Of a stretch of DNA of 64,000 nucleotides, positions 121 to 56,920 are shown piece by piece. Within the stretch, counting starts at the first letter, position 1, and every line of letters begins with the position of its first letter. The notes under the pieces are model-generated. The model searched no databases. It was not told the DNA's origin and saw only the letters and a program-made list of their open reading frames with translations. A program made the translations under genes and the position numbers. The stretch comes from a virus (Duplodnaviria; Heunggongvirae; Uroviricota; Caudoviricetes), in the IMG/VR virus record IMGVR_UViG_3300021255_002784, positions 24,416 to 88,415 of that record; one strand, written 5' to 3'.

Positions 121-438
121 ATGTTAAGTATAGCCAAGCTAAAACTTCAACTGGATATCAGTAGGGCACTCAGAAGTGACAAAGTGGCAAAAGTGTTCGA
201 AAATGCACTACTGAGCACCTTTCCAGTTGTCAATGACGAAAACGGAGCTCATGATATGGCAGAATCATTCGGTAAGTTATGTGCCAACGGATTATCTTCA
301 GCACTAGCTCAACCTATCACCGATGCAGTAGATGATTATGTCAAAGAGATAGGATTGCAGATCACGCCTACTATGTTGATGAGTCCGACCGGACCAGTGA
401 CAGGATCCATCAACCCAATAGATGTTAAAGTACTATGA
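121..438 (+). CDS. hypothetical protein (105 aa)
   Basis: ORF on + strand whose stop overlaps the next start (ATGA); no recognisable motif. Confidence 0.4.
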   Translation: MLSIAKLKLQLDISRALRSDKVAKVFENALLSTFPVVNDENGAHDMAESFGKLCANGLSSALAQPITDAVDDYVKEIGLQITPTMLMSPTGPVTGSINPIDVKVL

Positions 439-1952
439 GAAATATATTTGAAGAAGCGGGTGGTCAAAAATACGTTTCTGGATCTGAACGTCAGACCATG
501 GAGCGCGATAATAAAGGCAAACGCTGGGAGGATTATGATACTATCGTCTGCCCAGACGGTACTCGTATAGACATGGCCAACCTCCTCCAAGAACAAGCCA
601 AAGCCAAAGCAGCACTCATACACTTGGAGCCTATGTTCGCAGCCTTTGTTAATAGGCTTCAAATAGTATATACGTTTCGTATTAAAACACAAGCAACAGA
701 TGGTTTCCACCTGTTTGTCAATCCCCAATTTACTAATGTTCTAACTTTCGAAGGGAAAGTATTTGTCATGGCACATGAATGTATGCACTGTGTGCTTGAT
801 CACATGCGCAGGGGGCGCCAAGCGGGCCATGATCCCGAACGTAGTAACATCGCTGCGGACTACGAAGTAAACCAAACTCTGGTCGACCTAGGCCTGTTTA
901 GTGCTGCTACTATTCAAAAGATCAGAGGCCTCATCGATTCTAAATATTCAGGATGGGCATATGAACGTATTTACGATGATAGCCCAAAAGGAAATACATC
1001 AGGCAATAACAATAACAGTCAGAAAGGCAAATCTGATAATTCTCAGGGAGGCCAGAAAGGTCAATCCCAAGCGGATCCGAACAAAAATGAAGGTCAGGTC
1101 AAACCCGAAGACTGTGCCGGACAATACGGGAGTAACATGCCTGAGACACCGGGCGGATTCATGGATGCACGCGAAGGTAATGAACTCGCAGAAAAAGAAG
1201 GTTACGACAAAGGTCCTACCGATGATGCCAACTCTAATGAATGGAAACGGGTTGCCATCAATCAAGCACAAAAAGATAATCGTACAGATGCTCATGGAGC
1301 TCGTGGGCGGTTCTATAGTAAGATTCTCGATCTCTGGAAAACAAACACAGATTGGAAAAAAGCCTTTCGTAAGATCATAGGTCGTGCATTAAATACTCAG
1401 GACCGACGTCGTGCGTTTGCAAACAAAAACATACTCGCTACTCAACGGGACCCTAATGGTCGTGCTCGCATAGCTATGGCTGACTTCGATAAGTTCGACG
1501 CAGTAGACTACATGACCATATTCATTGATAGTTCGGGATCCATCTCCGACGACATGCTTCGATATATGCTGGGAGAGGTTTATAATATAGCCCTACAGCT
1601 CAAACCCGAGACTTTGGTGCTCGTTCAGTTGGATACTACTGTTCAAGAATGTCAAATTTTTCACGACTCTAATGAGTTCAAACGATATGCCAAAGTGGCT
1701 ACCGTCAAAGGGCGCGGCGGTAACTACCAACAAGCCTGCTGGGATTTCCTACGAAACGATAAACGTTTCTCACGAACTCAGTCAGAATTGGTTATTATGT
1801 TTACAGACGGTTGGCTGGATCAACACAAGCGGGATCCGAAAACCATGTCGAATTTGTGCTGGGCTATTATTGACAACCCATCATTCAAATTACAGTACCC
1901 AGAAACACGTACATCAGTCGTATATCTGAGTTCAAAAGACATCAAGAAGTAA
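435..1952 (+). CDS. putative metallopeptidase-like (HExxH) + von Willebrand factor A domain protein
   Basis: HECMH zinc-binding-like motif near the N-terminus; C-terminal DxSxS MIDAS-like motif (IFIDSSGSIS) typical of vWA domains; long Gly/Asn/Gln-rich low-complexity linker. Confidence 0.55.
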   Translation: MRNIFEEAGGQKYVSGSERQTMERDNKGKRWEDYDTIVCPDGTRIDMANLLQEQAKAKAALIHLEPMFAAFVNRLQIVYTFRIKTQATDGFHLFVNPQFTNVLTFEGKVFVMAHECMHCVLDHMRRGRQAGHDPERSNIAADYEVNQTLVDLGLFSAATIQKIRGLIDSKYSGWAYERIYDDSPKGNTSGNNNNSQKGKSDNSQGGQKGQSQADPNKNEGQVKPEDCAGQYGSNMPETPGGFMDAREGNELAEKEGYDKGPTDDANSNEWKRVAINQAQKDNRTDAHGARGRFYSKILDLWKTNTDWKKAFRKIIGRALNTQDRRRAFANKNILATQRDPNGRARIAMADFDKFDAVDYMTIFIDSSGSISDDMLRYMLGEVYNIALQLKPETLVLVQLDTTVQECQIFHDSNEFKRYAKVATVKGRGGNYQQACWDFLRNDKRFSRTQSELVIMFTDGWLDQHKRDPKTMSNLCWAIIDNPSFKLQYPETRTSVVYLSSKDIKK

Positions 1953-5133: not shown

Positions 5134-6837
5134 ATGGAACAAGAATCATCAATATCCTCAAGACTAATAGATGAAGGAGGCAGCATCCTAATTGGAGAAG
5201 GTCAATTACAGAACCCTTCTAATATACCAGGATTCAAGGAGACAACCAACTTCAAGCCTCGATATGCACAGGCCAAGCAGAAGAAGAAAGGTACCATCGC
5301 ACGGTTCTTCTCAAACATGTCTCGCCTGGGTATGACATACGATGAACAAGTCATTGCTAATATGCGTGCTATACCTGCAGATAAGAACTTCATTCCTAAA
5401 GAACAACAACTGATCAATCAGGACTTGTTCACATCGTTAGCTAACAACTGGAAGGTCAAACAGAACGCAGATAAGGATTTCTTTAGTAAAGACTTTCCTC
5501 AGAAACGTGACGCACTCCGCAAGTTGGCTATGCAACCCGAACTGGAAGATATCTTGGACACCATGTCTAACGAAGCTATCGTGTATGATAATGAAATGGT
5601 ATACTTCGCAGAACCTTTTGTTGAGGCTCAGGAGATCAATATGTTCACCAAAGAGGTCCAGGAGAAAATCACCAATACTATCAATACTAACTTCCGTCGT
5701 TTCTATAAGATGTTGAACTGGAAGTACAATGCCTGGGATGATTTCAAACGATTCCTCGTGGAGGGTATCCTGGCTTGGGAGATTGTTTATGATAATCTGG
5801 AGAAACCAACCAACATCATTGGGTTGGTTCCATTGGATCCGGCTACACTCACCAAGAAGTTCGATAACAACAAATGGTACTGGATACAATATAAGGGCAT
5901 GAATGGCAAGGAGCGCAAACTTCTCGATTCACAGGTTATTTATATATCTTATCAAGAGACCAACTGTCTGACTCGTTTGTCGTATCTGGAGCGTCTAATC
6001 AGACCGTTCAATATCTATCGTATCATCGAGCAAGCTCAGTTGATCTGGACCATTACCAACTCGTCCTATAAGATGAAGTTTACTATACCGGTTAAGGGTA
6101 TGAACCGCACACTTGGTATGCAGACTGTATCGTCCGCGATGAATAAATACAAGGAAGACATCAAGTTCATGCCGGATACTGGAGAATTGGAAATCAATGG
6201 ACAAGTGAACCTGCCGTTCAATAAAGAGTACTGGTTCCCCGAGAACGACTCTGGTACACCAAACATCGAGACACTGGGTGGCGAAGGACCTAACCTCAAT
6301 GATGACGACCAGTTACGTTACTTCAAGAATCAACTGTACAAGATATCTAAAATTCCTTTGAGTCGTTTTGAACAGGACAGTGGTGAGACCTGGTTTGGAT
6401 CCGATGCTACGTCGGTAGCTCGCACCGAGATTGATTTCGGACGATTCGTTACTCGTTTGCGTAACCGCTTCAGTCAAATCATTATCAAACCACTACAGAT
6501 GCAGTTAGCACTGTCTATCCCTGAACTACAAGACAACAGAGAGGTGCTCGAAGCTATCTCTTTGCAATACCACTCCTACAACCTCTTTGAAGAGATGATG
6601 GAAATGGAACTGATGCAGAAACGTGTCGACTTCATACAAACCATGAAAGATGGTATGGTGGACATGGACGCCAACGGAAATGAAATCAAATTTTGGTCAT
6701 CTAAATTCTTGGTACAGAAGTACTTGAAACTATCTGATGCTGACTTGAAGCTCAACGCTAAGTTGAAACAAGAAGAGATTGAAGAACTTAACCTTGCTGG
6801 AGGGGAGAACTCCGATGATGGTGGAGGTATGATGTAA
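5134..6837 (+). CDS. portal protein, T4 gp20-like
   Basis: C-terminal half aligns by eye with T4 gp20 (KIPLSRFEQDSGETWFGSDATSVARTEIDFGRFVTRLRNRF vs T4 [40 protein letters not shown]); size 567 aa. Confidence 0.75.
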   Translation: MEQESSISSRLIDEGGSILIGEGQLQNPSNIPGFKETTNFKPRYAQAKQKKKGTIARFFSNMSRLGMTYDEQVIANMRAIPADKNFIPKEQQLINQDLFTSLANNWKVKQNADKDFFSKDFPQKRDALRKLAMQPELEDILDTMSNEAIVYDNEMVYFAEPFVEAQEINMFTKEVQEKITNTINTNFRRFYKMLNWKYNAWDDFKRFLVEGILAWEIVYDNLEKPTNIIGLVPLDPATLTKKFDNNKWYWIQYKGMNGKERKLLDSQVIYISYQETNCLTRLSYLERLIRPFNIYRIIEQAQLIWTITNSSYKMKFTIPVKGMNRTLGMQTVSSAMNKYKEDIKFMPDTGELEINGQVNLPFNKEYWFPENDSGTPNIETLGGEGPNLNDDDQLRYFKNQLYKISKIPLSRFEQDSGETWFGSDATSVARTEIDFGRFVTRLRNRFSQIIIKPLQMQLALSIPELQDNREVLEAISLQYHSYNLFEEMMEMELMQKRVDFIQTMKDGMVDMDANGNEIKFWSSKFLVQKYLKLSDADLKLNAKLKQEEIEELNLAGGENSDDGGGMM

Positions 6838-6861
6838 TAGAATTTTTTAATAAAAAAAATC

Positions 6862-6895
6862 AACCGATACTATAAATGTGTCGGTTGTTTTTTAT
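6862..6895 (+). terminator. rho-independent terminator after the portal gene
   Basis: CAACCGATAC...GTGTCGGTTG hairpin followed by TTTTTTATTTT. Confidence 0.6.
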
Positions 6896-6922
6896 TTTAT
6901 ATAAAAAGAGAAGCTCATTGAT

Positions 6923-8611
6923 ATGGATGTAAAGTACCTACTAACCGCTCCAAGGAGTCGTTGCACGGAAAAGCATATTAAAAATAAATTTCCAGACGAA
7001 TATGTTATTATCAAAAATTTGGACGGGGAAACATTTGGAGAAAAACTTTATAATTACTGCTACAATTCTCCTGAACATGTGTGCCCTGTGTGTGGGAAAC
7101 AAACCAAATTTATGAATTTTATAAATGGATTTCATGAGTATTGCTCGACAAATTGTTCATACCGCAGTGAAAGGAGAACCAATAAAATTAAAAAGACTTG
7201 CATCGATAGATATGGTGTTTCCAATGCCTCCCAGCTTCAAGCGATTAAAGACAAAAAAAGACAGACGATAACTAAAAATTTCGGCGGATTTGGATTCGGA
7301 AGTCAAAAAATTTCTGAAAAATCAAACAAAACTATTCAAGAGAGATATGGTGTGGATAATATATCGACATTAGCTGAAATAAAAGATAAGAAAAAAGTAA
7401 CCACACAAAAACATTATGGCGTTGATAGTGTATTGTCCCTTCAGGAAAATAGAGAAAAAGCCAAACTGGCGATTCTAAAAAAGTACGGAAATGATTTTTT
7501 CAAGCATATAAACGCACTTTCAAGAGCATCAGTCAAACGAAATATACCCAGAATACATAATGACTTTATCTGTTATGATGAAAATGGGAATTGGATTATG
7601 AAATGCCCTCACCCTGAATGTAATAAGTGTGCTGAAAAAAGATACATCACCAAACAAAATATGTATCATGATCGACTAAGATGGGGAGCTGAGACGTGCA
7701 CACACTTGTTGGAACCGGGTAAATTTTCGAAGGGTTCGACAATAGAGTTGTTCGTAAGAGATATATTAGATCGATGCAACATAAATTATGAACCTAACGT
7801 TCGCAGTATTATAACACCAAAGGAATTAGACATATATATATCATCAAAAAATTTAGGGATTGAAATAAACGGTCTTCGATGGCACAGTACTGAGTTCAGA
7901 ACATTCAGTGATCATATAAATAAATTCTTACTGTGCAAACAACGAGGCATACGGCTGTTAAGCATTTGGCAAGATTGGATAGTTAATAAACCCCAAATTG
8001 TCGAGTCAATGATTTTGGATAAGCTAGGTCTCTGTTCTAACAAAATATATGCAAGAAAGTGCATTATTAAAGAAATTGATTCGAAAACGTGTAACTCATT
8101 TCTTGACCACAATCACATTCAAGGGGCATGTAAATCGGTTATCAGATTAGGCTTATATTATAATGATGAATTGATGAGTGTAATGTGTTTTTCCAAAAGA
8201 TCCAAATTATCTGGATCTAAAAGTATAAATAATGAAGAATGGGAGCTTATAAGATTTTGCAGTAAATTAAATCACGTTATTGTTGGAGGAGCCGGTAAGT
8301 TGTTGAATCATTTTATAAAAAATTGGAACCCTAAAATTATAACATCATTTTCTTGTAATGATATAAGTGATGGGGGATTGTATCGGATACTAGGATTCGA
8401 GGAGGAAGGCATAAATCCTTCATATTGGTATGTAGAAAAAAGTACCTATAAACGATATCATAGGGCTACTTTTACTAAAACCTGTATAAAGCAAAAATAT
8501 CCAGAATTAGATATTGAAAATCATACTGAAACAGAATTGATGTCATCCTTGCCTTACTGGAGGATATACGATAGTGGGACTACTAAATGGAAATTAAATG
8601 TAGAGTCCTGA
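6923..8611 (+). CDS. putative free-standing homing-endonuclease-like protein (Zn-finger, tandem ~30-aa repeats, Vsr/PD-(D/E)xK-like nuclease core)
   Basis: N-terminal Cys clusters (CPVCGK..., CSTNC); three tandem repeats RYGVxNxSxLxxIKDKKKxT; central region ELDIYISSKNLGIEINGLRWHS resembling Vsr/DUF559-type PD-(D/E)xK nucleases; C-terminal GGAGKLL-containing domain of unknown fold. Confidence 0.4.
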   Translation: MDVKYLLTAPRSRCTEKHIKNKFPDEYVIIKNLDGETFGEKLYNYCYNSPEHVCPVCGKQTKFMNFINGFHEYCSTNCSYRSERRTNKIKKTCIDRYGVSNASQLQAIKDKKRQTITKNFGGFGFGSQKISEKSNKTIQERYGVDNISTLAEIKDKKKVTTQKHYGVDSVLSLQENREKAKLAILKKYGNDFFKHINALSRASVKRNIPRIHNDFICYDENGNWIMKCPHPECNKCAEKRYITKQNMYHDRLRWGAETCTHLLEPGKFSKGSTIELFVRDILDRCNINYEPNVRSIITPKELDIYISSKNLGIEINGLRWHSTEFRTFSDHINKFLLCKQRGIRLLSIWQDWIVNKPQIVESMILDKLGLCSNKIYARKCIIKEIDSKTCNSFLDHNHIQGACKSVIRLGLYYNDELMSVMCFSKRSKLSGSKSINNEEWELIRFCSKLNHVIVGGAGKLLNHFIKNWNPKIITSFSCNDISDGGLYRILGFEEEGINPSYWYVEKSTYKRYHRATFTKTCIKQKYPELDIENHTETELMSSLPYWRIYDSGTTKWKLNVES

Positions 8612-8696
8612 GGACCATCAACTCAGGACTTTTTGTTTTATTATTTATACAAAGAAACCATACAGCAAACACCACTCAAAACGGTGGTGTTTTTTA
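8604..8696 (+). terminator. tandem rho-independent terminators
   Basis: AGTCCTGAG...CTCAGGACT hairpin + TTTTTG; second hairpin ACACCAC...GTGGTGT + TTTTTT. Confidence 0.6.
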
Positions 8697-8742
8697 TCTA
8701 AATTCATTTAATAAAGAAGACAAAACTTATATTTTATAGCAT

Positions 8743-10317
8743 ATGAGAAAAGTGATAAAACGAGACGGATCCAAGGAGATCTTCAATTTTAGTAAGATAT
8801 ACAATGCTGTTGATGCTGCATTCGTACACTGTAATCGAACGATGCCTGAAGGTTTCAAATCTGCATTGGAGAGTACATTCAAAAACGAGAACCCCCGCGA
8901 CATAAATGGTAAACTCCTTCCACTGACGGTAGAGTCTATTCAGGATCGAGTCCAGAACCTGCTGTTCAAACACGGATATCAAGATGTATATAACGAGTAC
9001 CTTATATATCGATATGAGCACAAGGTGACACGTGAATACGTCAAGTCCCAACGGGATTTCATCGACAGGTACATCCAATCAGATAACAATGCCAACGCCA
9101 CTATAGACGACAATTCTAATGTGGCCAGTAAAAACATAGGTACACTCAATAGTGAGATCCATAAACCATGGAACATCAAAATCTCTCGGGGCATGGTTAT
9201 GGACATGCTCAAGATACTGTATCCGGACTTCGATCACAAACAGTACATCAGGGATCTGGCCCATCATATAATATATAAACATGACGAGTCTACTTATGCC
9301 GGGCCTATCGCACCGTACTGTTGTAGTATTTCTATGTATCCATTTATTACTGGTGGTATCAAACATATCGGTGGTCTGTCAGCCTGCCCGCACAGTCTGA
9401 TGTCTTTCTGTGGTATATATATCAATCTGATATTCGCCATCAGTGGTCAGTTTGCAGGCGCTGTAGCTACGTCAGAGTTCTTCGTATACTTCGATTATTT
9501 CGCCCGAAAAGAATGGGGTGACGATTATTATAAGCGCACAGACGAACTCGTTGGAAAACGCACTTTACACAAGCTTATTCACCAGTATTTTCAACAGGTG
9601 GTGTACAGTATCAACCAGCCCGCAGCAGCACGAGGTATGCAGAGTGCTTTTGTGAACTTCTCATACTTCGACAAACCATTCTTTGATGGTATGTTTGGCA
9701 ACTTCATGTTCCCGGACGGAACCAAAGCATGCTGGGAGAGTGTTAACTGGCTACAACGCGATTTTATGCAGTGGTTCAATGAAGAGCGCTTACGCTGTAT
9801 GTTAACGTTCCCTGTAGAGTCTTTTGCTCTGGTATACAAGGACGGACACTTCGTGGATCAGGACAGCGCGGATTTCGTAGCGGCTGAGTATGCTCGAGGT
9901 CATTCCTTCTTTACGTACATATCTGATTCGGTGGATTCACTTTCTTCGTGTTGTTTTAATGGGGATGAAATTATCAAAATTAAAGATAAAAACGGTAATA
10001 ATTTTTCCACATCAATATCGGATTTTGTCAATTCAATAAGTTCTTCAGTTTGCCCATCAGGGAAAAAGATTGGGGAAAAAACATATTTTATAGATTCTTT
10101 TAATAAAAATGGTGGTTGCAAAGAGGTTCAGATTACGGGGGTTTTGAAAAAACAATACTGTGGCAAAATGTATAAGATTTGCGTGGATGAAAATAAATAC
10201 ATCACAGTAACACCAGACCATATTTTAATGGTGAGAAATCGAAAGGGGAATATTCTTTCCCTCCCTGCAGAAGATGTTGTAAGAAACCCAGATGACTATG
10301 AACTTGTTGTGGATTGA
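8743..10317 (+). CDS. nrdD: anaerobic ribonucleoside-triphosphate reductase NrdD, N-terminal fragment fused to the N-terminal half of an intein (IntN)
   Basis: ATP-cone at the N-terminus (MRKVIKRDGSKEIFNFSKIYNAVDAA); conserved NrdD SSCC(RL) motif split after the first Cys; from 9952 intein block A (CFNGDEIIKI) and block B (ITVTPDHILMV); stop after ~121 intein residues. Confidence 0.8.
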   Translation: MRKVIKRDGSKEIFNFSKIYNAVDAAFVHCNRTMPEGFKSALESTFKNENPRDINGKLLPLTVESIQDRVQNLLFKHGYQDVYNEYLIYRYEHKVTREYVKSQRDFIDRYIQSDNNANATIDDNSNVASKNIGTLNSEIHKPWNIKISRGMVMDMLKILYPDFDHKQYIRDLAHHIIYKHDESTYAGPIAPYCCSISMYPFITGGIKHIGGLSACPHSLMSFCGIYINLIFAISGQFAGAVATSEFFVYFDYFARKEWGDDYYKRTDELVGKRTLHKLIHQYFQQVVYSINQPAAARGMQSAFVNFSYFDKPFFDGMFGNFMFPDGTKACWESVNWLQRDFMQWFNEERLRCMLTFPVESFALVYKDGHFVDQDSADFVAAEYARGHSFFTYISDSVDSLSSCCFNGDEIIKIKDKNGNNFSTSISDFVNSISSSVCPSGKKIGEKTYFIDSFNKNGGCKEVQITGVLKKQYCGKMYKICVDENKYITVTPDHILMVRNRKGNILSLPAEDVVRNPDDYELVVD

Positions 10318-10358
10318 GTTTATCCAAAGAATAATTTATTATATTAAAAACCGATCAA

Positions 10359-11477
10359 ATGGAAGATTATTTAATTTGCCCAATATGTAGTTGTAAAAGT
10401 AAAAACCTAATATCACATATTAGAAGAACTCATGACAAAAATATAAAAAACAGAGTTGATTTTGAAAATAGATTTCCTGAATTAAAAGGTACAAAACTTC
10501 AGATATCTAGATACGATTTGTCAAAAGAATTTAAGTGTGAGTTTTGTGGAAAAATCTACCACAGATTGAATGACTTAAGAAACCATATTCGGCAAAATCA
10601 TCCGGATAAATACTTCAAAACAATACCTAACTTAAAAGCACCTCAACAAAAATGTCCTATATGCTCAAAACTGGTAGGAAACTTAAGACAACATGTTAAA
10701 GAATCTCATGATTTAGAATGGGAAGTATTTTGTAAAGAATATAATTGGGACGTTAATAAAGCAAAAATTATAACTGACGAGTACAGGAAAAAATTGTCGG
10801 AAAATAAAAAATTATATTATAGGAGTCCAGAAGGGTTGAAAAGAAGAAAGAAACAATCAGATTTCTGGAAAGAAAATAATCCAGTCTACAATCCAAAATG
10901 TTTAGAAAAATCAATGTTTACAAGAAGTTCAAATGGGCACCTACCAGTACGAAACCAGGATTGTAGAGGAATAAAAGTTAATTGTTTTGGAAAAACATTC
11001 AGAAGTTTTACCGAATTTAAGTTTTATATCTTGTGCAAAAAATACGGATTAAACATCAGATATGAACCAAACGATTATTGCGTCAAATGGTATTCAGAAG
11101 ATAAAAAATTTTATACTACATATCTCCCAGATTTCATCATAAATGAAAACGAACTGATCGAATTAAAACAAGACAAATATCAGGTTAAAAAATGTGTAAA
11201 TTTTGAGAAATACATAAAAGTTTCAGAAGCATATAAAAAATTAAATGTTAATTTTAAGATAGTTGATCCTATTGAATTTTTCAAAGAAAGGGGCGTAATT
11301 TTAGATTTTGAAGATAAACAGTACATTAAAGATAATATATTAAATTTGTATGATAAAAACGCTATACGAATAATAACCCCGTATAAAGAATCTTCCGAAT
11401 TAAGAGATCTTTTCGAAACGGACAATTTATCGAACATTTCTTGCATAACATTCACCAAAAATGCTAAAAAATCATAA
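10359..11477 (+). CDS. free-standing homing endonuclease (C2H2 zinc fingers + PD-(D/E)xK/Vsr-like domain) located between the IntN and IntC genes
   Basis: three CxxC...HxxxH fingers (CPICSCKSKNLISHIRRTHD, CEFCGKIYHRLNDLRNHIRQNHPD, CPICSKLVGNLRQHVKESHD); C-terminal YLPDFII...ELIELK nuclease-like motif; own ATG after a frame-0 stop, different frame from flanking ORFs. Confidence 0.6.
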   Translation: MEDYLICPICSCKSKNLISHIRRTHDKNIKNRVDFENRFPELKGTKLQISRYDLSKEFKCEFCGKIYHRLNDLRNHIRQNHPDKYFKTIPNLKAPQQKCPICSKLVGNLRQHVKESHDLEWEVFCKEYNWDVNKAKIITDEYRKKLSENKKLYYRSPEGLKRRKKQSDFWKENNPVYNPKCLEKSMFTRSSNGHLPVRNQDCRGIKVNCFGKTFRSFTEFKFYILCKKYGLNIRYEPNDYCVKWYSEDKKFYTTYLPDFIINENELIELKQDKYQVKKCVNFEKYIKVSEAYKKLNVNFKIVDPIEFFKERGVILDFEDKQYIKDNILNLYDKNAIRIITPYKESSELRDLFETDNLSNISCITFTKNAKKS

Positions 11478-12582
11478 TATGAAATATTGCAAAATTTATA
11501 AAATAGAGACTATAACTGTTGACCAACCAGTATATGATATAGAATTGGCAGAAAATCATTATTTTTCCGCCAATGGTATAATCACACATAATTGCAGGCT
11601 CAAGAACAAGGTGCAAACCAAAGAGTTCAATTTCACCAATGGTAATATGGGCGTCATGACTGGTAGCAAGTCAGTCATCACTCTGAATCTGAACCGTATT
11701 ATCCAAGACAGTTATAATGAGTGGTGTAAGATCTTCTCTAATGGTACACCTGACGAACTGAAAGAGACGTTCAAAGAAGACTACAGTGTTCTTTGCAACA
11801 GTCTCCAACAAGTACTCGAAAGAGTATATAAGTATCACACCGCCTACAACGAGAGCCTCTGGCGTATGTACGATGCACATATGTTACCTGTATATAGAGC
11901 AGGATTCATATCACTGGACAAGCAGTACCTGACTATCGGCATCAATGGTCTGAACGAAGCCGCTGAGTTCCTTGGTATATCCATCAATGACAACCCCGAG
12001 TATTCGAAGTTCTGTCAGACGGTGTTTAGCTGTATCAAAGATATGAACACCTCACACAACGGTAAGTTTAACGGACATAAACTGACATTCAATACCGAGT
12101 GTGTTCCTGCAGAATCGTTAGCTGCCAAGAACTACAACTGGGACAAGGCTGATGGATACTGGGTTCCTGAAGGACGTAATCTGTATGCATCTTATATATA
12201 TCTACCGTCTGACGAGAAAGTCAATCTGTTCGAGAAGATACGTATGCACGGTAAGAATTACATCGGCGACTACCTGGACGGAGGATCAGCAGCTCACCTC
12301 AACCTGGACAGTCACCTGAGTAAAGCCCAGTACGAGAAAGTGCTTCAGTACGCAGCTGAACAAGGATGTCAGTACCTGACTTTCAATATACCGAACAGTG
12401 AGTGTGCCGACTGTGGATATATTACGAAAGTACCTATTGCTCAATGCCCGAAGTGTGGATCAGAACATATCTGGTACTACGACAGACCGATTGGATATAT
12501 AACCCGAATAGATCGCTGGGCAACAGCAAGACAGATCGAACAAAAAACAAGAGTATACGAACACATTCCATCGGATTGTTAA
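11461..12582 (+). CDS. nrdD: IntC (C-terminal intein part) fused to the NrdD C-terminal fragment
   Basis: intein blocks F/G (VYDIELAENHYFSANGIITHN) then +1 Cys resuming CRLKNK (completes SSC|CRL); C-terminal Zn-ribbon CADCGY...CPKCGS and glycyl-radical region RPIGYITRI. Confidence 0.8.
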   Translation: MLKNHNMKYCKIYKIETITVDQPVYDIELAENHYFSANGIITHNCRLKNKVQTKEFNFTNGNMGVMTGSKSVITLNLNRIIQDSYNEWCKIFSNGTPDELKETFKEDYSVLCNSLQQVLERVYKYHTAYNESLWRMYDAHMLPVYRAGFISLDKQYLTIGINGLNEAAEFLGISINDNPEYSKFCQTVFSCIKDMNTSHNGKFNGHKLTFNTECVPAESLAAKNYNWDKADGYWVPEGRNLYASYIYLPSDEKVNLFEKIRMHGKNYIGDYLDGGSAAHLNLDSHLSKAQYEKVLQYAAEQGCQYLTFNIPNSECADCGYITKVPIAQCPKCGSEHIWYYDRPIGYITRIDRWATARQIEQKTRVYEHIPSDC

Positions 12583-12587
12583 TAAAA

Positions 12588-12619
12588 GAACCTAGATCCT
12601 AAAGATCTAGGTTCTTTTT
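12588..12619 (+). terminator. strong rho-independent terminator after nrdD
   Basis: AAGAACCTAGATC...GATCTAGGTTCTT perfect hairpin + TTTT. Confidence 0.7.
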
Positions 12620-12632
12620 AATATATTGATAT

Positions 12633-13556
12633 ATGCAAATAGTAATTCCTAGTGTAGAGATGTTGGTTCCGGAGACGGATCAGACATCTATGTTCAAGCA
12701 CATTGTCAAGTGTGCACAGACCTGTTATAAAGTTGATAAGGATGTGGACGATCCACGTGAATGGATCAAAACACATCTGTTGTCTAACTCACCTCGTCAT
12801 CTGAGTCCTCTGGAACACGGCACTGCTTATCTGACTATTCAGGTAGACAAAAATGCACCCACTGATATCGTCGATGAGGCAAACAGGCGCGATAATATTG
12901 TTCAATTTTATATTGATAACAAGTATTCTCATGTCAATACCTACGAGAGTCCTGTAGGATATACCGCTTATATCACTACTAACTATCGAGTGATCGAAGA
13001 GAACCATCGTTGGGGCGATCTGATCTATCTTACCAAACCATTCAAGAAACACGAGAAGCGTTATACCTTCCGATTCTCCTGCGATATCGGAGTCAGTCGC
13101 GAAGCTAATCGACATCGTTCCATCTCACCGAGCGAGCAGAGCACTCGGTACTGCAACTACAGCAATGATCGGTTCGGGAACTCACTGCAGATCGTCTTAC
13201 CAACTAATCTGTTTGATGCACCAGATGAACAACTGGTTCCTCGCAAACTGGATGAGTACTGCGCAGCTATTGCGGATGGAAAGGATTCCGGATTTCCTGA
13301 TATCGATTGGTGGATGTTCGCTAACATCGCTTGCGAGACTGCTTACATGAATCTGATTCGACTAGGATGGAAGCCCCAACAAGCTCGCCGCGTTCTTCCG
13401 TTAGACACTCATACTGAAGTGGTTTATACCGCATTCGAAAAAGACTGGAGACACTTCCTCTATTTGAGAGATGATAAGGCAGCTCATCCAGACATGCGTT
13501 TCCTGGCGCGTCAGGTACATATCCAACTACTGAAAGAAAAAGAAAAATACAAATAA
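12633..13556 (+). CDS. thyX: flavin-dependent thymidylate synthase ThyX
   Basis: ThyX signature RHRSISPSEQSTRY (RHRxxSxxxxSxRY) and N-terminal SPLEHG motif. Confidence 0.85.
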   Translation: MQIVIPSVEMLVPETDQTSMFKHIVKCAQTCYKVDKDVDDPREWIKTHLLSNSPRHLSPLEHGTAYLTIQVDKNAPTDIVDEANRRDNIVQFYIDNKYSHVNTYESPVGYTAYITTNYRVIEENHRWGDLIYLTKPFKKHEKRYTFRFSCDIGVSREANRHRSISPSEQSTRYCNYSNDRFGNSLQIVLPTNLFDAPDEQLVPRKLDEYCAAIADGKDSGFPDIDWWMFANIACETAYMNLIRLGWKPQQARRVLPLDTHTEVVYTAFEKDWRHFLYLRDDKAAHPDMRFLARQVHIQLLKEKEKYK

Positions 13557-13568
13557 ATCGATTTATAT

Positions 13569-14270
13569 ATGGATGGAAACAGAACATTCGTAGGAAAGGT
13601 CAACGGCAAAACCTACTATAGTATTGAGGATTATAACATGGCGTATCTGGATGCCATAGGCAAGGACGGAACGGTTACTGCGTCAATTGAATTCAAACCT
13701 GCGCACACTGAACAAGAACAGGCATTCGATTATTGCCTCCCAGATTTCGACCTAGATGAATTGACCGGCGTAGCCGAGACAGACACACCTATCATTGAAG
13801 ATTTTATCAAGCAAGATTTGGCCTCAGATCGGATTATAGATATCCTTGATCGATCCGATAAAATGAATGCTAAGGATCGTGCTGAACTGATTACTGATGT
13901 AAAGGACATGATTGAAAGTATTAAGGCGGATATCAATGACAACAATCGTTCGCATTCATCTTTGCTTAAGAGCATGGCGAGCAACGAGCAAGAGATCAAT
14001 CAGATCCGTGCAAAATTGGATAGTCTGAACGAAAACAAAAATAAAATTCAGACCCAAATCAATATTACCGAGGGTGCAGATCGAATACTAAGAGCCTCAC
14101 ACGGGTTCTACACCTCACTCTATGAAGATTTGAACAGTAGACTTCCAGCAGATGATTCGCACAACAAGGTTACCGGACGCGAGGTGGAAAAGGGTAACCC
14201 CGGATTTATCCTGGATCACGACCAGAAGGAAATCGCACGAAAATTGTTCAAAGAGATTTTAGGAATCTGA
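13569..14270 (+). CDS. hypothetical protein with coiled-coil (233 aa)
   Basis: ORF; acidic with a predicted coiled-coil segment. Confidence 0.45.
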   Translation: MDGNRTFVGKVNGKTYYSIEDYNMAYLDAIGKDGTVTASIEFKPAHTEQEQAFDYCLPDFDLDELTGVAETDTPIIEDFIKQDLASDRIIDILDRSDKMNAKDRAELITDVKDMIESIKADINDNNRSHSSLLKSMASNEQEINQIRAKLDSLNENKNKIQTQINITEGADRILRASHGFYTSLYEDLNSRLPADDSHNKVTGREVEKGNPGFILDHDQKEIARKLFKEILGI

Positions 14271-14278
14271 TACAGATC

Positions 14279-14312
14279 GAATGGAGTTACGGAACGGTAA
14301 CTCCATTTATTT
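14279..14312 (+). terminator. rho-independent terminator
   Basis: ATGGAGTTACGGAACGGTAACTCCAT hairpin + TTATTTTGTTTT. Confidence 0.6.
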
Positions 14313-14466
14313 TGTTTTATTGCGCGATTTCCTTTGATTTAACGCAATATCTATTTCGAGATGATAAATTATATTGTTTTTAATTTTTTTGCGCATAAAC
14401 ACTAAATATTTCGATTTATTTCTTATATATACTCATAAGAACAATATTTAAGAAAGGAATACGAAT

Positions 14467-14736
14467 ATGACAAAGAATGAAACAGTGAATTACGCAATTG
14501 ATCACTTGATGGACAACGGAAGCCTTACTGAAGTGATTAACGGACGCGCATTCAGCACATATACAGAGCACACACGTTTTGAATTGGAAGCCCTTTATGA
14601 CCGGCTCGCTCAGAAGGGTTACATTTCAGCAGAAAGTCTTGCCACTGCTTATGAGAAGCGCCTAACAGAGAATCGCAAACGGGTTCAGACGATGAAAAAC
14701 CATAATATCTCATTAGTTCGCAAGATGAGTAAGTAA
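14467..14736 (+). CDS. hypothetical protein (89 aa)
   Basis: ORF. Confidence 0.4.
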   Translation: MTKNETVNYAIDHLMDNGSLTEVINGRAFSTYTEHTRFELEALYDRLAQKGYISAESLATAYEKRLTENRKRVQTMKNHNISLVRKMSK

Positions 14737-14746
14737 TCAACAACGC

Positions 14747-16985: not shown

Positions 16986-17573
16986 ATGTGTATGACAGAC
17001 ATATATCACACAGACAATAAATACGAAATAGTATATGCTGATCCGGCCTGGTCGTATTACAATGATATGACAGTGGATCCTGACTGCACCACGATACGGG
17101 GTATGAGGAGACCACCATATCCGGTGATGTCTGTGAAAGATATCTGTAATCTACCAATAAAAGATATAACCGCAGACAACGCAATACTTTTTATCTGGAC
17201 CACAGATTACCATTTGGGACGCTGCATCAGTGAAGTGATTCCGGCTTGGGGATTTGAATACAAAACGATTGGATTTGTGTGGGCCAAGAAGGGTAAGCAA
17301 GGCAAACAAGTTTCATTTATGGGAGCCTACACCAAGAAGTCAGGCTGCGAATTATGCCTGATAGCTACCAAAGGAAAAGACGCACACAAGCTTGTACAAA
17401 AACACAATATAAATTCTTTTATAGAATACCCAAGACAAGAACATTCCAAAAAACCGGATATAATAAGAGATTCTATTGTTGAATTGTGTGGCGACCGAAA
17501 ACGCATTGAACTATTTGCTCGCGATAATTACGAGGGTTGGGATGTTTGGGGAAATGATTCGAAAATATCATAA
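16986..17573 (+). CDS. DNA N6-adenine methyltransferase, MT-A70-like
   Basis: IVYADPAW motif (DPPW family) and downstream conserved MT-A70 region. Confidence 0.6.
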   Translation: MCMTDIYHTDNKYEIVYADPAWSYYNDMTVDPDCTTIRGMRRPPYPVMSVKDICNLPIKDITADNAILFIWTTDYHLGRCISEVIPAWGFEYKTIGFVWAKKGKQGKQVSFMGAYTKKSGCELCLIATKGKDAHKLVQKHNINSFIEYPRQEHSKKPDIIRDSIVELCGDRKRIELFARDNYEGWDVWGNDSKIS

Positions 17574-18147: not shown

Positions 18148-18271
18148 TATGGATGATATCTCTGATATATTTCCGGAGTTCTATTTCGATGATGTGATTC
18201 GTCCTCCTGATATAGATTTTGAGGAAGCTATTGACAACGAGGACGATTTGTTCTATTTTTGCTGATAGATT

Positions 18272-18517
18272 TTGCTAAATGTTTCCACTTTTTTCTTATA
18301 TATATACATGAGGAAAAGAATATGCGAATATAAGAAACAAACAGTATTGAAACCCGGAGATTCTTACGGATCTTGCACAGTAAAATCTGTACACAAAATC
18401 CAAGGAGCACAGGCTCCTATCAAAGCATATTATGACGATGGTAAACCTATTGAGAACAAGGACGATGTTCTTCGGATGGTGCTCGACAACGGAATGATTC
18501 ATTATGTAAAACTCTAA
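18272..18517 (+). CDS. hypothetical protein (81 aa)
   Basis: ORF just downstream of a TTCTTATATATATACATG box. Confidence 0.4.
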   Translation: MLNVSTFFLYIYMRKRICEYKKQTVLKPGDSYGSCTVKSVHKIQGAQAPIKAYYDDGKPIENKDDVLRMVLDNGMIHYVKL

Positions 18518-19254: not shown

Positions 19255-19769
19255 AAGTCATTTTCCTGGACATAGATGGTGTGCTCAATTCAGAAGAATA
19301 CTTCAAACGCTGGCATGAGGAGAACCTAGGACAAAAAGGTCACGATCATTATGTAGATGAGATAGCTGTGGATAGACTGATGGACCTGATCCAGAAGACG
19401 GGTTGTTATATAATATTATCCTCTTCTTGGAGACGACACAACCTACCTGATACTATTTTATATCTATCCGAACACCGAAGTTTGGATAGGATACAACCTT
19501 ATCTGATTGGCATCACACCCCGTCTATGGCAGTACAGAGGTAGAGGTGACGAGATCAAACGTCTGATGAATGAATGGTCTGACTGGGTCAAGCGGGGTCT
19601 GATCAGCGAAAAATTCAAAGATGACAAGATCAATAACTACGTTATTCTGGATGATGATTCAGACATGCTGGATGAACAAAAAGAACATTTCATTCATACA
19701 AAGTGGGCAGTAGGGCTACAGGATTCTGATGTGGAGAAGTGCTTAAATATTTTGGGAGGAAATCACTAA
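19251..19769 (+). CDS. HAD-superfamily hydrolase-like protein
   Basis: N-terminal FLDIDGVLN (HAD motif I DxDGV); its stop codon lies inside the AATCACTAA repeat motif. Confidence 0.5.
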   Translation: MKVIFLDIDGVLNSEEYFKRWHEENLGQKGHDHYVDEIAVDRLMDLIQKTGCYIILSSSWRRHNLPDTILYLSEHRSLDRIQPYLIGITPRLWQYRGRGDEIKRLMNEWSDWVKRGLISEKFKDDKINNYVILDDDSDMLDEQKEHFIHTKWAVGLQDSDVEKCLNILGGNH

Positions 19770-19840
19770 CAAGGTCTTGAAAACCCTTGGGACTCCGTCA
19801 ACAAAGTCTTGAAAACCTTTGGGATTTCATTAAACATTTC
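19761..19840 (+). repeat. two tandem units of the intergenic repeat cassette + T-run + promoter box
   Basis: AATCACTAACAAGGTCTTGAAAACCCTTGGG...CAACAAAGTCTTGAAAACCTTTGGGATTTCATTAAAC then TTTTTTTCTTTTATATATACATAA. Confidence 0.7.
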
Positions 19841-19933
19841 CTCTTTTTTTCTTTTATATATACATAATAGCAATATACGACACGTCTACATATTGGAATC
19901 TTTGATATTCAACCATTCAGAACGGGTCCAATT

Positions 19934-21767: not shown

Positions 21768-21820
21768 AATTAAGAGGAAATCACTAAAGATTTCCTCTTT
21801 TTTCTTATATATATACATAA
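21768..21820 (+). promoter_or_regulatory. terminator hairpin with conserved ATCACTAAAGAT loop + promoter box
   Basis: GAGGAAATC-ACTAAA-GATTTCCTC hairpin, TTTTTT, then TTCTTATATATATACATAA. Confidence 0.65.
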
Positions 21821-21831
21821 AAGAACAATGT

Positions 21832-23085
21832 ATGGCACAACTTCAATTCACATTAGGAGAGAACATTAACGAGATTCTCTTAGACATAGCGCAGAACAAG
21901 ATGAAAACAGGAGACTTCGATGGCGCCTTACAAGTTTACACACAGTCATTCGAAGGGTTTCCTGAATCGTTAGCCGTAAGTATACTTCAAGGAGAGTACG
22001 CTATCAGACCTATCGATGGTGGACGAAACATTGATGTGACGGACGATGCCAGCGTAGTAGAAGAGAGCCGGTCTCACTTGCAGGATTGGAACTCGGTTAT
22101 CCGTTCTTCTATCAAGCAGATAAAAGAGTACTGCAAGTATATCACGTGGCTGAAGTCTAAAGTGCATATTGATCTCAACGACTATTGCTTAACTCAATAC
22201 ATGACTAATCTGACTAACAACCAGGAAGAGATGACTCCGTTGTGCACTCTGACAGCACGATACTTGGCTGGTCATTATATTGAGGGCAATTACAAACTGT
22301 CCTCTTTTCAACGAATGATGGCTCTGGGTGATGAGAACATCGAAGAGCTCAACAGTGACGAACTAAAGTGCTACTGCATTGTGCGCTATGTACACGCTAT
22401 AAAGAACCTGCATAACGAACTGATCACATTGAGTAAGCTGTATAAAGGATTGCTGAAATGGGATCTAATCGAAAGTGTTCCTTTCATTGCTGACGTGTAC
22501 GAGAACTGTCTACACAATTATCTATCCGACTTCTACGACACGGAAAAAGGTTATCATCATGTGATGTGCGATGAGGAGGTGATTAAGATGAAGGAACGGA
22601 TGTGCGAAGAGATGATCCAGACCGAGTTCGGCAAGGAGTTCTTCAGAAATGGTATCATAGCAAAGAACATCCTCGATGGATATGACGCTGGCTATCTTGC
22701 TCCGGACGGAACATTCTATGGTCTGAGAGGTGAGACTAACGAACTCCTCCACGTACAACTCGGCGACATGCTTGCAGAAAAGAAGTTCAAAGAGTTCAAA
22801 CAAGGTAACTCATTTGATATCGAATACGCTCTTATGCAAGAGGGTTACATGAAGATACACCATGACCGGGTGTTCGGACTGTACGCTTTCAAACGCGATG
22901 AGGTAGGTAAAAATTGCAAGCTGTGGTGTCCTACTGAGGCACAACTCCAGGCCATCTACGAATACGCCAACAAGTTCTATGGTGGGCAGATCAACACAGA
23001 TTCCACCTTCGGATACAAAATGGTATCGGTAAGCGCACTGCGCCAGATGGACGAGATCGCATTACGTAACACATTCAACATCTAA
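21832..23085 (+). CDS. hypothetical protein (417 aa)
   Basis: long ORF. Confidence 0.5.
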   Translation: MAQLQFTLGENINEILLDIAQNKMKTGDFDGALQVYTQSFEGFPESLAVSILQGEYAIRPIDGGRNIDVTDDASVVEESRSHLQDWNSVIRSSIKQIKEYCKYITWLKSKVHIDLNDYCLTQYMTNLTNNQEEMTPLCTLTARYLAGHYIEGNYKLSSFQRMMALGDENIEELNSDELKCYCIVRYVHAIKNLHNELITLSKLYKGLLKWDLIESVPFIADVYENCLHNYLSDFYDTEKGYHHVMCDEEVIKMKERMCEEMIQTEFGKEFFRNGIIAKNILDGYDAGYLAPDGTFYGLRGETNELLHVQLGDMLAEKKFKEFKQGNSFDIEYALMQEGYMKIHHDRVFGLYAFKRDEVGKNCKLWCPTEAQLQAIYEYANKFYGGQINTDSTFGYKMVSVSALRQMDEIALRNTFNI

Positions 23086-24570: not shown

Positions 24571-24616
24571 CGAGAGAATCACTAAAGATTCTCTCGTTTT
24601 TCTTATATATACATAA
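24571..24616 (+). promoter_or_regulatory. terminator hairpin (loop ACTAAA) + promoter box
   Basis: GAGAGAATC-ACTAAA-GATTCTCTC, TTTTT, TCTTATATATACATAA. Confidence 0.65.
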
Positions 24617-24667
24617 AAGACACGGACGGACTCGTGTGTTAGCTTGAGGATTACATGATCGTTTGAA

Positions 24668-28659: not shown

Positions 28660-28780
28660 TCGTAGAATCCACTATTTTTTTTACGTCGGAATCACTAACG
28701 AAGTCTTGAAAAAACCCGAGATTTCATTAAAGATTTCGGCGTTTTTTCTTATATATATTCATATTAGAGAAATAACATAT

Positions 28781-29062
28781 ATGAGCAAGAAGATTACTAT
28801 TTGGCATAACAGTAAGAAAAAGATATCTTTTGTTATCACCGATGAACAGAGTTACAATAGCAACACAATGAGTGCAGATGCCTTTGTTCAATCATTAGTA
28901 CACGTAAGTCAAAACTTTGCATCTGGTCTGTACTGTGAGATAGAGGATCTGAGTATTGCAGACTATGATAAGGTTATCACCTGTATCCGAGATGAGAAAG
29001 AACATAAACTGACTCAAATTCAGAACGAACAAGACAAAAGACAACTCGAAATACAATTTTGA
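28781..29062 (+). CDS. hypothetical protein (~93 aa; start at MSKKITIW after the promoter box)
   Basis: the upstream part of the 28652 ORF is the repeat cassette; an ATG follows TTCTTATATATATTCATATTAGAGAAATAACATAT. Confidence 0.4.
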   Translation: MSKKITIWHNSKKKISFVITDEQSYNSNTMSADAFVQSLVHVSQNFASGLYCEIEDLSIADYDKVITCIRDEKEHKLTQIQNEQDKRQLEIQF

Positions 29063-29393
29063 AATTATGGATGATGAATTAAAACTCCTACAGATCGCAG
29101 GATGGGTCCTTTGGGTCGCAGTAGTAGTAACAGCAGTATTAACTATTTAACAAAATAACCCATGAACAAAACTCTTATTATCGCAACAATCATATTAAGT
29201 CTGGTGAACGCAGGCTTATGCATTATGTCTGATAATTGGTCTGGTGTATGTGGATGGGTAGTAGCGGCTATATCCAATATCGAACTACTAGGAAAATAAT
29301 TTTTAGTTTTTCGCTAACGCAGTCTTGAAAATCTTTGATTTTCATTAAACATTTGACAGTAGTTTCAGATATATACATAAAGAACAATAACAT

Positions 29394-54032: not shown

Positions 54033-54035
54033 AGA

Positions 54036-54110
54036 TGAAATCATTAACGCAGTCTTGAAAATCTTTGATTTTCATTAAACATTTCCTCTTTTTTCATATA
54101 TTTATACATA
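54036..54110 (+). promoter_or_regulatory. repeat cassette + promoter box
   Basis: TCATTAACGCAGTCTTGAAAATCTTTGATTTTCATTAAACATTTCCTC-TTTTTT-CATATATTTATACATAA. Confidence 0.65.
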
Positions 54111-54283
54111 ACCAAAACAAATTCAAACATGACAGGTTTAGTATTAGCAATCTTAATACAAGCACCTATGAGGTCTAAGTTTCCAGAACCAATCAAACCC
54201 ATGCCGATCGAGCGCTTTATGCTCAAAGGCGAGGAGTGTCGAATGAATAGACCTGTGTATCATCAATTTTTATTCTAATCAGT

Positions 54284-55257: not shown

Positions 55258-55281
55258 AATAAGGATTCCTCTAACAAAGTC

Positions 55282-56905: not shown

Positions 56906-56920
56906 CAAAGATAATATACT

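Follow-up and report, generated by a model that had tools for sequence, protein, structure and literature searches.

In an uncultured phage, the class III ribonucleotide reductase gene nrdD was found to be interrupted by a 1641-bp segment that carries the two halves of a split intein (IntN and IntC) and, between them, a separate gene for a predicted 372-aa endonuclease with three zinc fingers. The segment lies at positions 9952-11592 of the 64,000-nt stretch that was analysed (the window; positions 24,416 to 88,415 of IMG/VR record IMGVR_UViG_3300021255_002784). We consider it, with a probability of about three in four, to be a mobile nrdD cassette in which a split intein is combined with a homing endonuclease gene. 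The anatomy of the cassette, its conservation, its exact presence/absence polymorphism and the fold assignment of its nuclease were established here.

The two parts of nrdD are encoded by two open reading frames (ORFs), nrdD-N and nrdD-C, which share a common reading frame (Table 1). The ORF at 10359-11477 was correctly recognized in the initial annotation as the middle ORF of a fractured nrdD: it lies between nrdD-N and nrdD-C in another frame, starts 41 nt past the stop codon of IntN and overlaps the nrdD-C ORF by 17 nt. The Pfam families ATP-cone (3.1e-13) and NRDD (2.5e-30) matched nrdD-N, and NRDD matched nrdD-C (2.7e-49); the first ~240 positions of the NRDD model were found in the nrdD-N ORF and positions 258-560 in the nrdD-C ORF. 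After ...DSLSSC the nrdD-N product reads CFNGDEIIKI...VTPDHILMV...ELVVD up to the stop codon (intein blocks A and B, 121 aa), and the nrdD-C product begins with MLKNH...VYDIELAENHYFSANGIITHN (blocks F and G, 44 aa) before continuing as CRLKNK.... The Pfam Intein_splicing profile gave a weak match to IntN (1.3e-4) and a match to IntC (2.2e-5, profile positions 115-155), both below the Pfam cut-off, as expected of intein halves. Homologous IntN segments were present in 9 other loci (36-48% identity), and IntC was 46-64% identical in 10 loci.

The N- and C-exteins, when joined, give an NrdD of 732 aa. It aligns collinearly with the uninterrupted NrdD protein P0134, at 91% identity. The peptide predicted at the junction after splicing, ...DSLSSC-CRLKNK... 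(DSLSSCCRLKNK; SLSSCCRLKNKVQTKEF), is identical in P0134. The insertion point falls between the two Cys residues of ...SSC-CRL..., in the active-site region of nrdD, and the cassette, made up of IntN, the endonuclease gene and IntC, corresponds to 547 codons and is in frame. The GC content is 0.25-0.31 across 10001-11500, within the cassette, versus 0.41-0.45 in the flanks on either side. Genes consisting of a split intein with a free-standing endonuclease gene between its halves, termed fractured genes, have been described mainly from phages (Dassa et al. 2009, PMC2677866). The nrdD locus has the features of such a gene: two ORFs on the same strand that rebuild the full protein, intein blocks A/B and F/G followed by a nucleophile at position +1, and a separate endonuclease ORF between the halves. 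The endonuclease ORF is placed likewise in L001, L002 and L004-L009. Trans-splicing by IntN and IntC is predicted to restore NrdD. The possibility that a contiguous intein is hidden by a frameshift or a sequencing error was ruled out, since the two nrdD halves share a frame and the middle ORF uses another, and since the three-ORF layout recurs in independent assemblies. An Rfam scan of 6000-13000 detected no group I intron, riboswitch or other family above threshold, and the number of sites found in a sigma-70 promoter scan was no higher than in shuffled sequence.

The joined 732-aa NrdD was used as query against the protein database to find uninterrupted alleles. This search, which the initial annotation had proposed, yielded P0134 (735 aa), encoded in locus L012 on a 207-kb contig, and the allele pinpoints the insertion site. 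L012 is syntenic with the window and contains genes for an amidase, a T4-type portal, nrdD and thyX. In blastn comparisons, L012 4772-6063 aligned with window 8649-9938 (89.9% identity) and L012 6077-9262 with window 11593-14743 (81% identity). The alignment stops at window position 9938 and restarts exactly at 11593; IntN, the endonuclease gene and IntC are not in L012. The break and restart of the alignment, together with the identical junction peptide, indicate that the window carries exactly 9952-11592 in addition, i.e. that the two genomes show a clean 1641-bp presence/absence difference at a conserved site whose flanks are 81-90% identical.

Homologues of the 372-aa protein formed 23 clusters among 5.8 billion clusters; they were 36-66% identical to it and all ~360-395 aa long. 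On the strength of these homologues, and of the length of the ORF in low-GC DNA, the endonuclease ORF is a real gene and not a chance reading frame. A hidden Markov model (HMM) of the nuclease domain, searched over 1.84 billion representatives, gave 110 matches at E ≤ 1e-3 and 16 at E ≤ 1e-10. Scans with the endonuclease alignment detected 1 locus in IMG/VR and 5 loci in JGI metagenomes, and a scan of IMG/VR with the joined NrdD gave no match. No match was obtained by megablast of 6800-12700 or by tblastn of the 372-aa protein against 50,697 GenBank phage records, and no relative of this protein was present in the 185,579 prokaryotic genomes scanned. NCBIfam gave no meaningful match for it or for the 562-aa protein encoded at 6923-8611 (protein 2). 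In all 10 loci with readable flanks (L001-L010) the order was N-extein, IntN, endonuclease gene, IntC and C-extein, and the insertion site was the same, ...SC-C(F/L)xG(D/E)E...THN-CRL, with endonuclease identities down to 27-29%. As judged from these sequence comparisons, the coupling to one site and the presence/absence polymorphism are the behaviour of a homing element and not of an ordinary phage gene.

The C-terminal part of the 372-aa protein has the alpha-beta-beta-beta-alpha-beta core of the restriction-endonuclease-like fold. Its motif TYLPDFIINENELIELK occupies residues 254-270, and E219, D258, E268 and K270 were invariant in 23 homologue sequences. Absence of the catalytic D/E...K residues, which the initial annotation had named as grounds for giving up the nuclease assignment, was thus not observed. 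The family profile matched T7 endonuclease I across tYtPDF...vEtK (E 0.01), and in the HMMER alignment D258, E268 and K270 fell on the PD...ExK residues of that enzyme, which we take to be D55, E65 and K67. Tn7_TnsA-like_N was the commonest Pfam family among the members and their distant relatives. It matched 3 of 15 family members (best 3.8e-4) and, among distant relatives, reached 1.1e-5 (26.4 bits against a cut-off of 26.5). On the basis of the PD-(D/E)xK residues and the matches to T7 endonuclease I and TnsA, the nuclease is assigned, from sequence and structural model, to the canonical PD-(D/E)xK enzymes of the TnsA/T7 endonuclease I type. Of the initial label, a Vsr-like PD-(D/E)xK core, the second half can be kept, and the first half is wrong for this protein and fits protein 2 instead.

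Distant relatives carry the nuclease domain behind other modules: NUMOD3 and a helix-turn-helix (HTH) in P0045, DUF7487 in P0055, HTH repeats in P0048 and in a free-standing gene located between phage structural genes in L011, and many fingers in P0038, P0041 and P0129. Phage proteins of similar modular build in BFVD are annotated as NUMOD3, C2H2-type, ROS/MUCR, TnsA-N or Endonuclease I. Because the nuclease domain recurs with varied modules in these two groups of proteins, it appears to belong to a wider, uncharacterised set of modular phage endonucleases.

The number of C2H2 fingers, three, agreed with the initial annotation. Their spacing had been given as C-x2-C-x12-H-x3-H; x12 was found in finger 2 only, and all three fingers have x4 between the histidines. 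The description 'eukaryote-like' is adequate for finger 2, the only one with the classical C-x2-4-C-x12-H-x3-5-H spacing. It does not hold for fingers 1 and 3, which have x9 as in the bacterial Ros finger, whose ligands Cys79, Cys82, His92 and His97 form C-x2-C-x9-H-x4-H (PMC7283297). In the homologue alignment C7, C10 and H20 of finger 1, all four ligands of finger 2, and C99, C102 and H112 of finger 3 were invariant, and H117 was at least 90% conserved. Pfam zf-Di19 matched residues 57-117 (2.5e-9, 37.7 bits against a cut-off of 27.5); zf-C2H2 (0.0023) and zf-C2H2_4 were both below their cut-offs. C2H2 fingers of PDB matched finger 2 at E 2.4e-4, and precomputed ROS_MUCR matches were found on several homologues. 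The fingers are ~30-40 residues apart, with no short canonical linkers. An AlphaFold2 (AF2) model of the protein (predicted local distance difference test score, pLDDT, 85.3; predicted template modelling score 0.53) contains a compact C-terminal domain with pLDDT above 90 and three hairpin-plus-helix (beta-beta-alpha) units with long linkers between them, including a beta-hairpin and helix 17-24 in finger 1 and strands and helix 109-117 in finger 3. In the model the fingers are followed by two long conserved helices (140-155 and 157-173). Invariant residues in this linker region are W121, F124, C125, Y128, W130, L146, S147, N149, K150, N174 and P175. The best structural match in BFVD was a phage protein annotated as NUMOD3 (E 4.5e-9), and the region may resemble NUMOD3; the 372-aa protein had no Pfam NUMOD3 match. 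The fingers and helices together are the predicted DNA-binding region.

The following sequence of events would account for these observations. The 372-aa endonuclease would bind DNA through its extended N-terminal region, consisting of the three spaced C2H2 fingers and the conserved helices, and the C-terminal PD-(D/E)xK domain of TnsA/T7 endonuclease I type, with E219, D258, E268 and K270, would do the cutting. The site recognized by the protein would be long and would span the strongly conserved stretch of a cassette-free nrdD that codes for SSCCRL. During co-infection, such an nrdD would be cut at or near the junction of GATTCTTTATCCAGTTGC and TGCCGTCTCAAGAAC, the sequence being as in L012. 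Recombinational repair from the cassette-bearing genome would copy the whole 1641-bp unit into the recipient, and protein trans-splicing by the split intein would rejoin the NrdD fragments to ...DSLSSC-CRLKNK..., so that the host gene survives. Cleavage, target site and rejoining are in this scheme predictions from sequence. A more specific proposal, to which we would give slightly less than even odds, is that with the 372-aa protein we have a natural zinc-finger nuclease, the founding member of a homing lineage that is as yet uncharacterised. A long asymmetric nrdD site would be read by the fingers and helices of the protein and cut by its TnsA/endonuclease I-type domain, the same nuclease domain having been re-used with NUMOD3, HTH, DUF7487 or multi-finger modules; its partner would be an undescribed natural split NrdD intein.

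Several observations weigh against the proposed mobility and mechanism. The 372-aa protein of the window scored below every Pfam nuclease threshold, Tn7_TnsA-like_N and Phage_endo_I included. Of the enzymes it resembles, TnsA cleaves a single strand and T7 endonuclease I acts as a dimer, whereas a double-strand break would be needed here from a modular, apparently monomeric protein. Recent transfer rests on a single presence/absence pair (window and L012), and when extein, intein and endonuclease identities were compared for 6 loci the result was not significant (rho 0.28, p 0.31). No near-identical pair of cassettes in divergent nrdD backgrounds turned up. Hairpins of 14-21 bp (z -3.6 to -6.6) just upstream of or over the endonuclease start codon were found in four related loci; they look like the hairpins that sequester the ribosome-binding site or terminate transcription and so limit endonuclease expression in T4-like phages. 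Such an upstream regulatory hairpin was absent in the window (z 0.25) and weak in L002.

The nucleotide sequence at the junction speaks, in part, for the proposal. Across the insertion point, 10 of 24 nt differ between the window (9934-9957 joined to 11593-11598) and L012 (6059-6082). All differences are synonymous and include three multi-nucleotide codon swaps (Ser TCG/AGT, Leu CTT/TTA, Arg AGG/CGT), which leave the peptide unchanged. Relative to the 10.7% background divergence, the cluster of silent changes has P ~9e-5 per scanning window, but, as a further point against the proposal, P = 0.12 once corrected for all 1269 windows. The changes are suggestive of a short co-conversion tract or of selection on the target. 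Because the other occupied alleles have no common nucleotide signature at the junction, the cluster is not assignable to either co-conversion or target immunity. A very divergent stretch ~100-230 nt downstream of the insertion was rejected as a co-conversion tract, as this loop of NrdD is hypervariable in occupied and empty alleles alike.

A third state of the site was found in P0139 (894 aa; L014/L015), in which a contiguous 163-aa mini-intein is present at the identical position of nrdD. It is homologous to the concatenated IntN+IntC (29% identity, E 1e-5), and the IntN/IntC split point maps to its linker between blocks B and F. This linker is the usual seat of intein endonuclease domains. 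The endonuclease might target a contiguous mini-intein allele instead of the empty one, cut it within the part that codes for the intein and insert its own gene alone, converting the mini-intein into a split intein, which corresponds to the fracturing step of Dassa et al. That the junction is plastic is indicated by L016 (2748-6070 on a 180-kb contig; P0063), where nrdD-N+IntN is directly followed by an in-frame fusion of the zinc-finger endonuclease with IntC and NrdD-C (689 aa) that keeps D...ExK; this may be a stage between endonuclease genes that stand alone and endonuclease domains carried by inteins. We nevertheless regard insertion into a mini-intein as unlikely. The closest relative (91%) is empty and has no mini-intein, the whole 1641-bp unit being the difference; IntN, IntC and the endonuclease always co-occur; and at 29% identity the mini-intein is not an immediate precursor of the split intein.

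Somewhat less probable still is that the cassette is an old, vertically inherited and immobile remnant, in which the endonuclease is inactive or domesticated and only the split intein is needed. The homologues are deeply diverged (27-66% identity) yet always occupy the single site, the family is rare in the databases scanned, and the 6 loci show no clear phylogenetic discordance, all of which would agree with such a history. It fits poorly with the intact ORFs, with the invariance of all catalytic residues and nearly all zinc ligands, with the strongly deviant GC content, and with the clean presence/absence difference relative to a genome whose NrdD is 91% identical. In addition, extein identity is highest between the window and L002 (70%), yet their endonucleases are among the least similar (39%).

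It was also considered that the zinc-finger nuclease is a phage effector which degrades host or competitor DNA, or a transcription regulator, and merely resides in the intein. Fingers of the Ros/MucR type are known from transcription regulators, and Iyer et al. take related phage proteins with the restriction endonuclease (REase) fold as restriction-like weapons (PMC7824862). This explanation is improbable, because it accounts neither for the single split-intein position in one gene that is shared by every homologue with readable flanks nor for the joint absence of the gene and both intein halves in L012.

Inteins of another kind were seen elsewhere in nrdD. In an IMG/VR contig (L006, 2082-4958) the nrdD-N ORF is 958 aa long and includes, at a site further upstream, an additional contiguous intein that has LAGLIDADG motifs. 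This nrdD contains two inteins, the LAGLIDADG intein and the split intein with the zinc-finger endonuclease. In P0149 and P0152, LAGLIDADG inteins occupy other sites of nrdD.

Protein 2 had been described as a 562-aa relative of the zinc-finger endonuclease with Cys clusters, three tandem ~30-aa repeats and an uncharacterised GGAGKLL domain. Its length, its ELDIYISSKNLGIEINGLRWH core (residues 301-321), the Cys clusters and the GGAGKLL motif were found as stated, and the repeats proved to be five of ~23 aa. Protein 2 matches phrog_3339 'homing endonuclease' (3e-110) and Pfam DUF7487 and has at least 2475 homologue clusters. Matches to it were found by tblastn in 420 phage records; among these are Lak and further huge phages, RaK2/K64-1 (where it is annotated as 'homing endonuclease') and phages of Vibrio, Campylobacter, Acinetobacter and Dickeya. 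Phage endonucleases of the Hef type have been placed in the Vsr-like EDxHD family (Taylor et al. 2011, PMC3239194), and several free-standing Hef-like genes in one genome were reported for a LIMEstone phage (PMC3296691). With similarity to I-Bth0305I/Vsr (its profile matches 3r3p at 1.2e-10) and conserved E, D, H and D residues, protein 2 is by sequence an ordinary member of this known family, a Hef-like Vsr/EDxHD endonuclease. The GGAGKLL domain gave no match in PDB (phmmer). It is not uncharacterised; it is a putative Mom-like GNAT fold of a type already described in jumbo phages, where an REase-fold endonuclease and a Mom-family GNAT are joined in one protein, of which a genome often has several copies (Iyer et al. 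2021, PMC7824862). Protein 2 appears to share this REase-fold plus Mom-family build. Iyer et al. read the Mom/REase pair as a modification/restriction module, and the phage literature reads such proteins as Hef-like homing endonucleases.

The claim that the two proteins have related nuclease cores and form one family, both being Vsr-like (EDxHD), has very little left in its favour: DUF7487 extends over the repeats of protein 2 and, in P0055, over a TnsA-like nuclease, which points to shuffling of modules among phage endonucleases, but BLASTP found nothing meaningful between the proteins, hhalign of the family profiles gave a probability of 0.3%, the 372-aa protein has a D...ExK active site with Lys and not the E-D-x-H-D set with a catalytic His (PMC3239194), and its family profile matches T7 endonuclease I and not 3r3p.

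The slot between the portal gene and nrdD, two neighbouring genes whose alleles in related phages the initial annotation had suggested searching for, is polymorphic. It spans 6838-8648 in the window, 3294-4771 in L012 and 1222-2922 in L014, and contains a Hef-like endonuclease gene in the window and in L014 (a 566-aa homologue) and two unrelated genes (174 and 302 aa) in L012. The gene for protein 2 appears to behave like a mobile gene that stands on its own in this variable intergenic slot, separate from the nrdD cassette. As had been proposed, both genes are best taken for candidate mobile (homing-type) endonuclease genes whose DNA-binding regions are modular. Rfam gave a sub-threshold match to the small RNA STnc240 of enterobacteria at 6822-6896 (+; 33 bits, gathering score 55, E 0.045). 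The match overlaps the terminator-like hairpin that follows the portal gene and probably reflects nothing more than this hairpin.

Table 1. Features of the nrdD locus and other parts of the window (window positions unless a locus is named)
Feature	Position	Strand	Remarks
nrdD-N ORF	8743-10317	+	524 aa; N-extein and IntN
nrdD N-extein	8743-9951	+	ends ...DSLSSC; ATP-cone and N-terminal half of class III ribonucleotide reductase
IntN	9952-10317	+	N-terminal half of split intein; 121 aa and stop; block A CFNGDE..., block B ...VTPDH...
Endonuclease ORF	10359-11477	+	372 aa; free-standing, own start and stop
Finger 1	10377-10433	+	C7-x2-C10-x9-H20-x4-H25; Ros/MucR spacing
Finger 2	10536-10601	+	C60-x2-C63-x12-H76-x4-H81; classical spacing
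Finger 3	10653-10709	+	C99-x2-C102-x9-H112-x4-H117; Ros/MucR spacing
Conserved helical linker region	10710-10943	+	WxxFCxxYNWD; EYRKKLSxNKKxYY...QS...NNP
Predicted PD-(D/E)xK nuclease domain and C-terminal subdomain	10944-11474	+
Predicted catalytic codons	11013-11015, 11130-11132, 11160-11162, 11166-11168	+	E219, D258, E268, K270
nrdD-C ORF	11461-12582	+	373 aa; IntC and C-extein
IntC	11461-11592	+	C-terminal half of split intein; 44 aa; block F VYDIELAENHYFSANG, block G IITHN, then +1 Cys
nrdD C-extein	11593-12582	+	starts CRLKNK...; Zn ribbon and C-terminal glycyl-radical motif region
Endonuclease-start hairpins in related loci	L001 5948-5993, L004 4952-4997, L005 4950-5013, L007 4934-4993		sequences differ between loci
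Terminator-like hairpin after portal gene, upstream of protein 2	6861-6887	+	consensus scan only
Protein 2, free-standing endonuclease, Hef-like	6923-8611	+	562 aa
Protein 2, Zn ribbon	7082-7156	+	Cys4: C54, C57, C74, C78
Protein 2, DUF7487 helical repeats	7169-7555	+	five, ~23 aa; Y/F-G at residues 97, 120, 142, 165, 188
Protein 2, second Cys cluster	7604-7699	+
Protein 2, Vsr-like/EDxHD nuclease	7736-8023	+
Protein 2, putative Mom-like GNAT domain	8030-8608	+	residues 370-562; GGAGKLL motif
Terminator-like hairpin between protein 2 and nrdD	8667-8692	+	consensus scan only
Dispersed repeat sites, first half	~18262-18325, 19760-19870, 21775-21835, 24575-24625, 28690-28795
Dispersed repeat sites, second half	29295-29350, 54035-54115, 55265-55310, 56765-56920, 60490-60620

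The source phage has a genome of ~200 kb with a T4-type portal; its distant relatives include Sphingomonas phage PAU, Lak phages and other huge phages. The first 12 kb of the window contain a third endonuclease-like gene, a 505-aa ORF at 435-1952 (+), which matches phrog_1314 'HNH endonuclease' (7e-61). A dispersed three-part intergenic repeat was noticed in the window and is present in L012 too. Its first part is a 32-nt unit, ATTTCATTAACAAAGTCTTGAAAGTCCTTGGG, with 3-4 tandem copies at 60490-60620, the second a hairpin, GGAAATCACTAAAGATTTCC, with a T-run, and the third CTTATATATATACATAA; it looks like a terminator/promoter cassette. About 360 bp at 16990-17352, within or beside the ORF 16986-17573, did not align to L012. 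This ORF matches part of a DNA methyltransferase family only (phrog_359, profile positions 113-294 of 329).

The nrdD cassette shares with the fractured genes of Dassa et al. the division of a conserved gene for a DNA-precursor or replication enzyme into two ORFs on the same strand, the identical order of N-intein, endonuclease and C-intein, and the split at the usual endonuclease-insertion point of the intein. It differs in the host gene, as nrdD is absent from the text among the eight enzyme types, and in the nuclease: the endonucleases described there were GIY-YIG, HNH and Vsr-like with no C2H2 fingers named, whereas here a TnsA/T7 endonuclease I-like PD-(D/E)xK domain is combined with C2H2 fingers (PMC2677866). 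In a survey of split phage ribonucleotide reductase genes, nrdD was interrupted by introns or putative inteins and not in the fractured arrangement (PMC3653736). Targeted literature searches turned up neither a split intein in NrdD nor a homing endonuclease of the TnsA-like or C2H2 type. In comparison with I-Bth0305I and the EDxHD family (PMC3239194), the 372-aa protein has D...ExK, no profile similarity, and fingers in place of NUMOD/HTH modules. By structure and by sequence, its nuclease domain matched best the N-terminal domain of TnsA (Tn7) and T7 endonuclease I, which have the same layout E...(T)Y(T)PDF...(E)xK; neither has zinc fingers or an intein association. TnsA acts within a transposase complex, and T7 endonuclease I is a structure-specific junction resolvase. 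A canonical PD-(D/E)xK active site in a homing endonuclease is a feature shared with I-Ssp6803I, reportedly a small tetrameric enzyme whose gene lies in a tRNA group I intron and which lacks separate DNA-binding modules; I-Ssp6803I was not among the matches of the 372-aa protein. The R2 retrotransposon protein and engineered zinc-finger nucleases (C2H2 plus FokI) resemble it in design without homology. R2 has a reverse transcriptase between its modules, and the engineered enzymes have tandem fingers with short linkers and depend on dimerisation of FokI. Both the arrangement and the superfamily of the nuclease have been described before; what is new is the combination of nrdD as host gene, this branch of nucleases and a DNA-binding region built from fingers.

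For annotation, the 'Vsr-like' and 'TnsA-like' phage endonucleases should be kept apart, and the GGAGKLL domain of Hef-like proteins should be recorded as a putative Mom-like GNAT fold. The NrdD split intein might be tried as an orthogonal tool for protein ligation. The empty, mini-intein and split intein plus endonuclease alleles of nrdD, together with the endonuclease-IntC fusion, form a series that bears on how endonucleases enter and break inteins. If active, the 372-aa protein would add a distinct architecture, C2H2 fingers joined to a TnsA/endonuclease I-like PD-(D/E)xK domain, to the short list of homing endonucleases and would extend fractured genes to nrdD. It would also be a natural counterpart of the engineered zinc-finger nucleases and a possible scaffold for programmable nicking or cutting.

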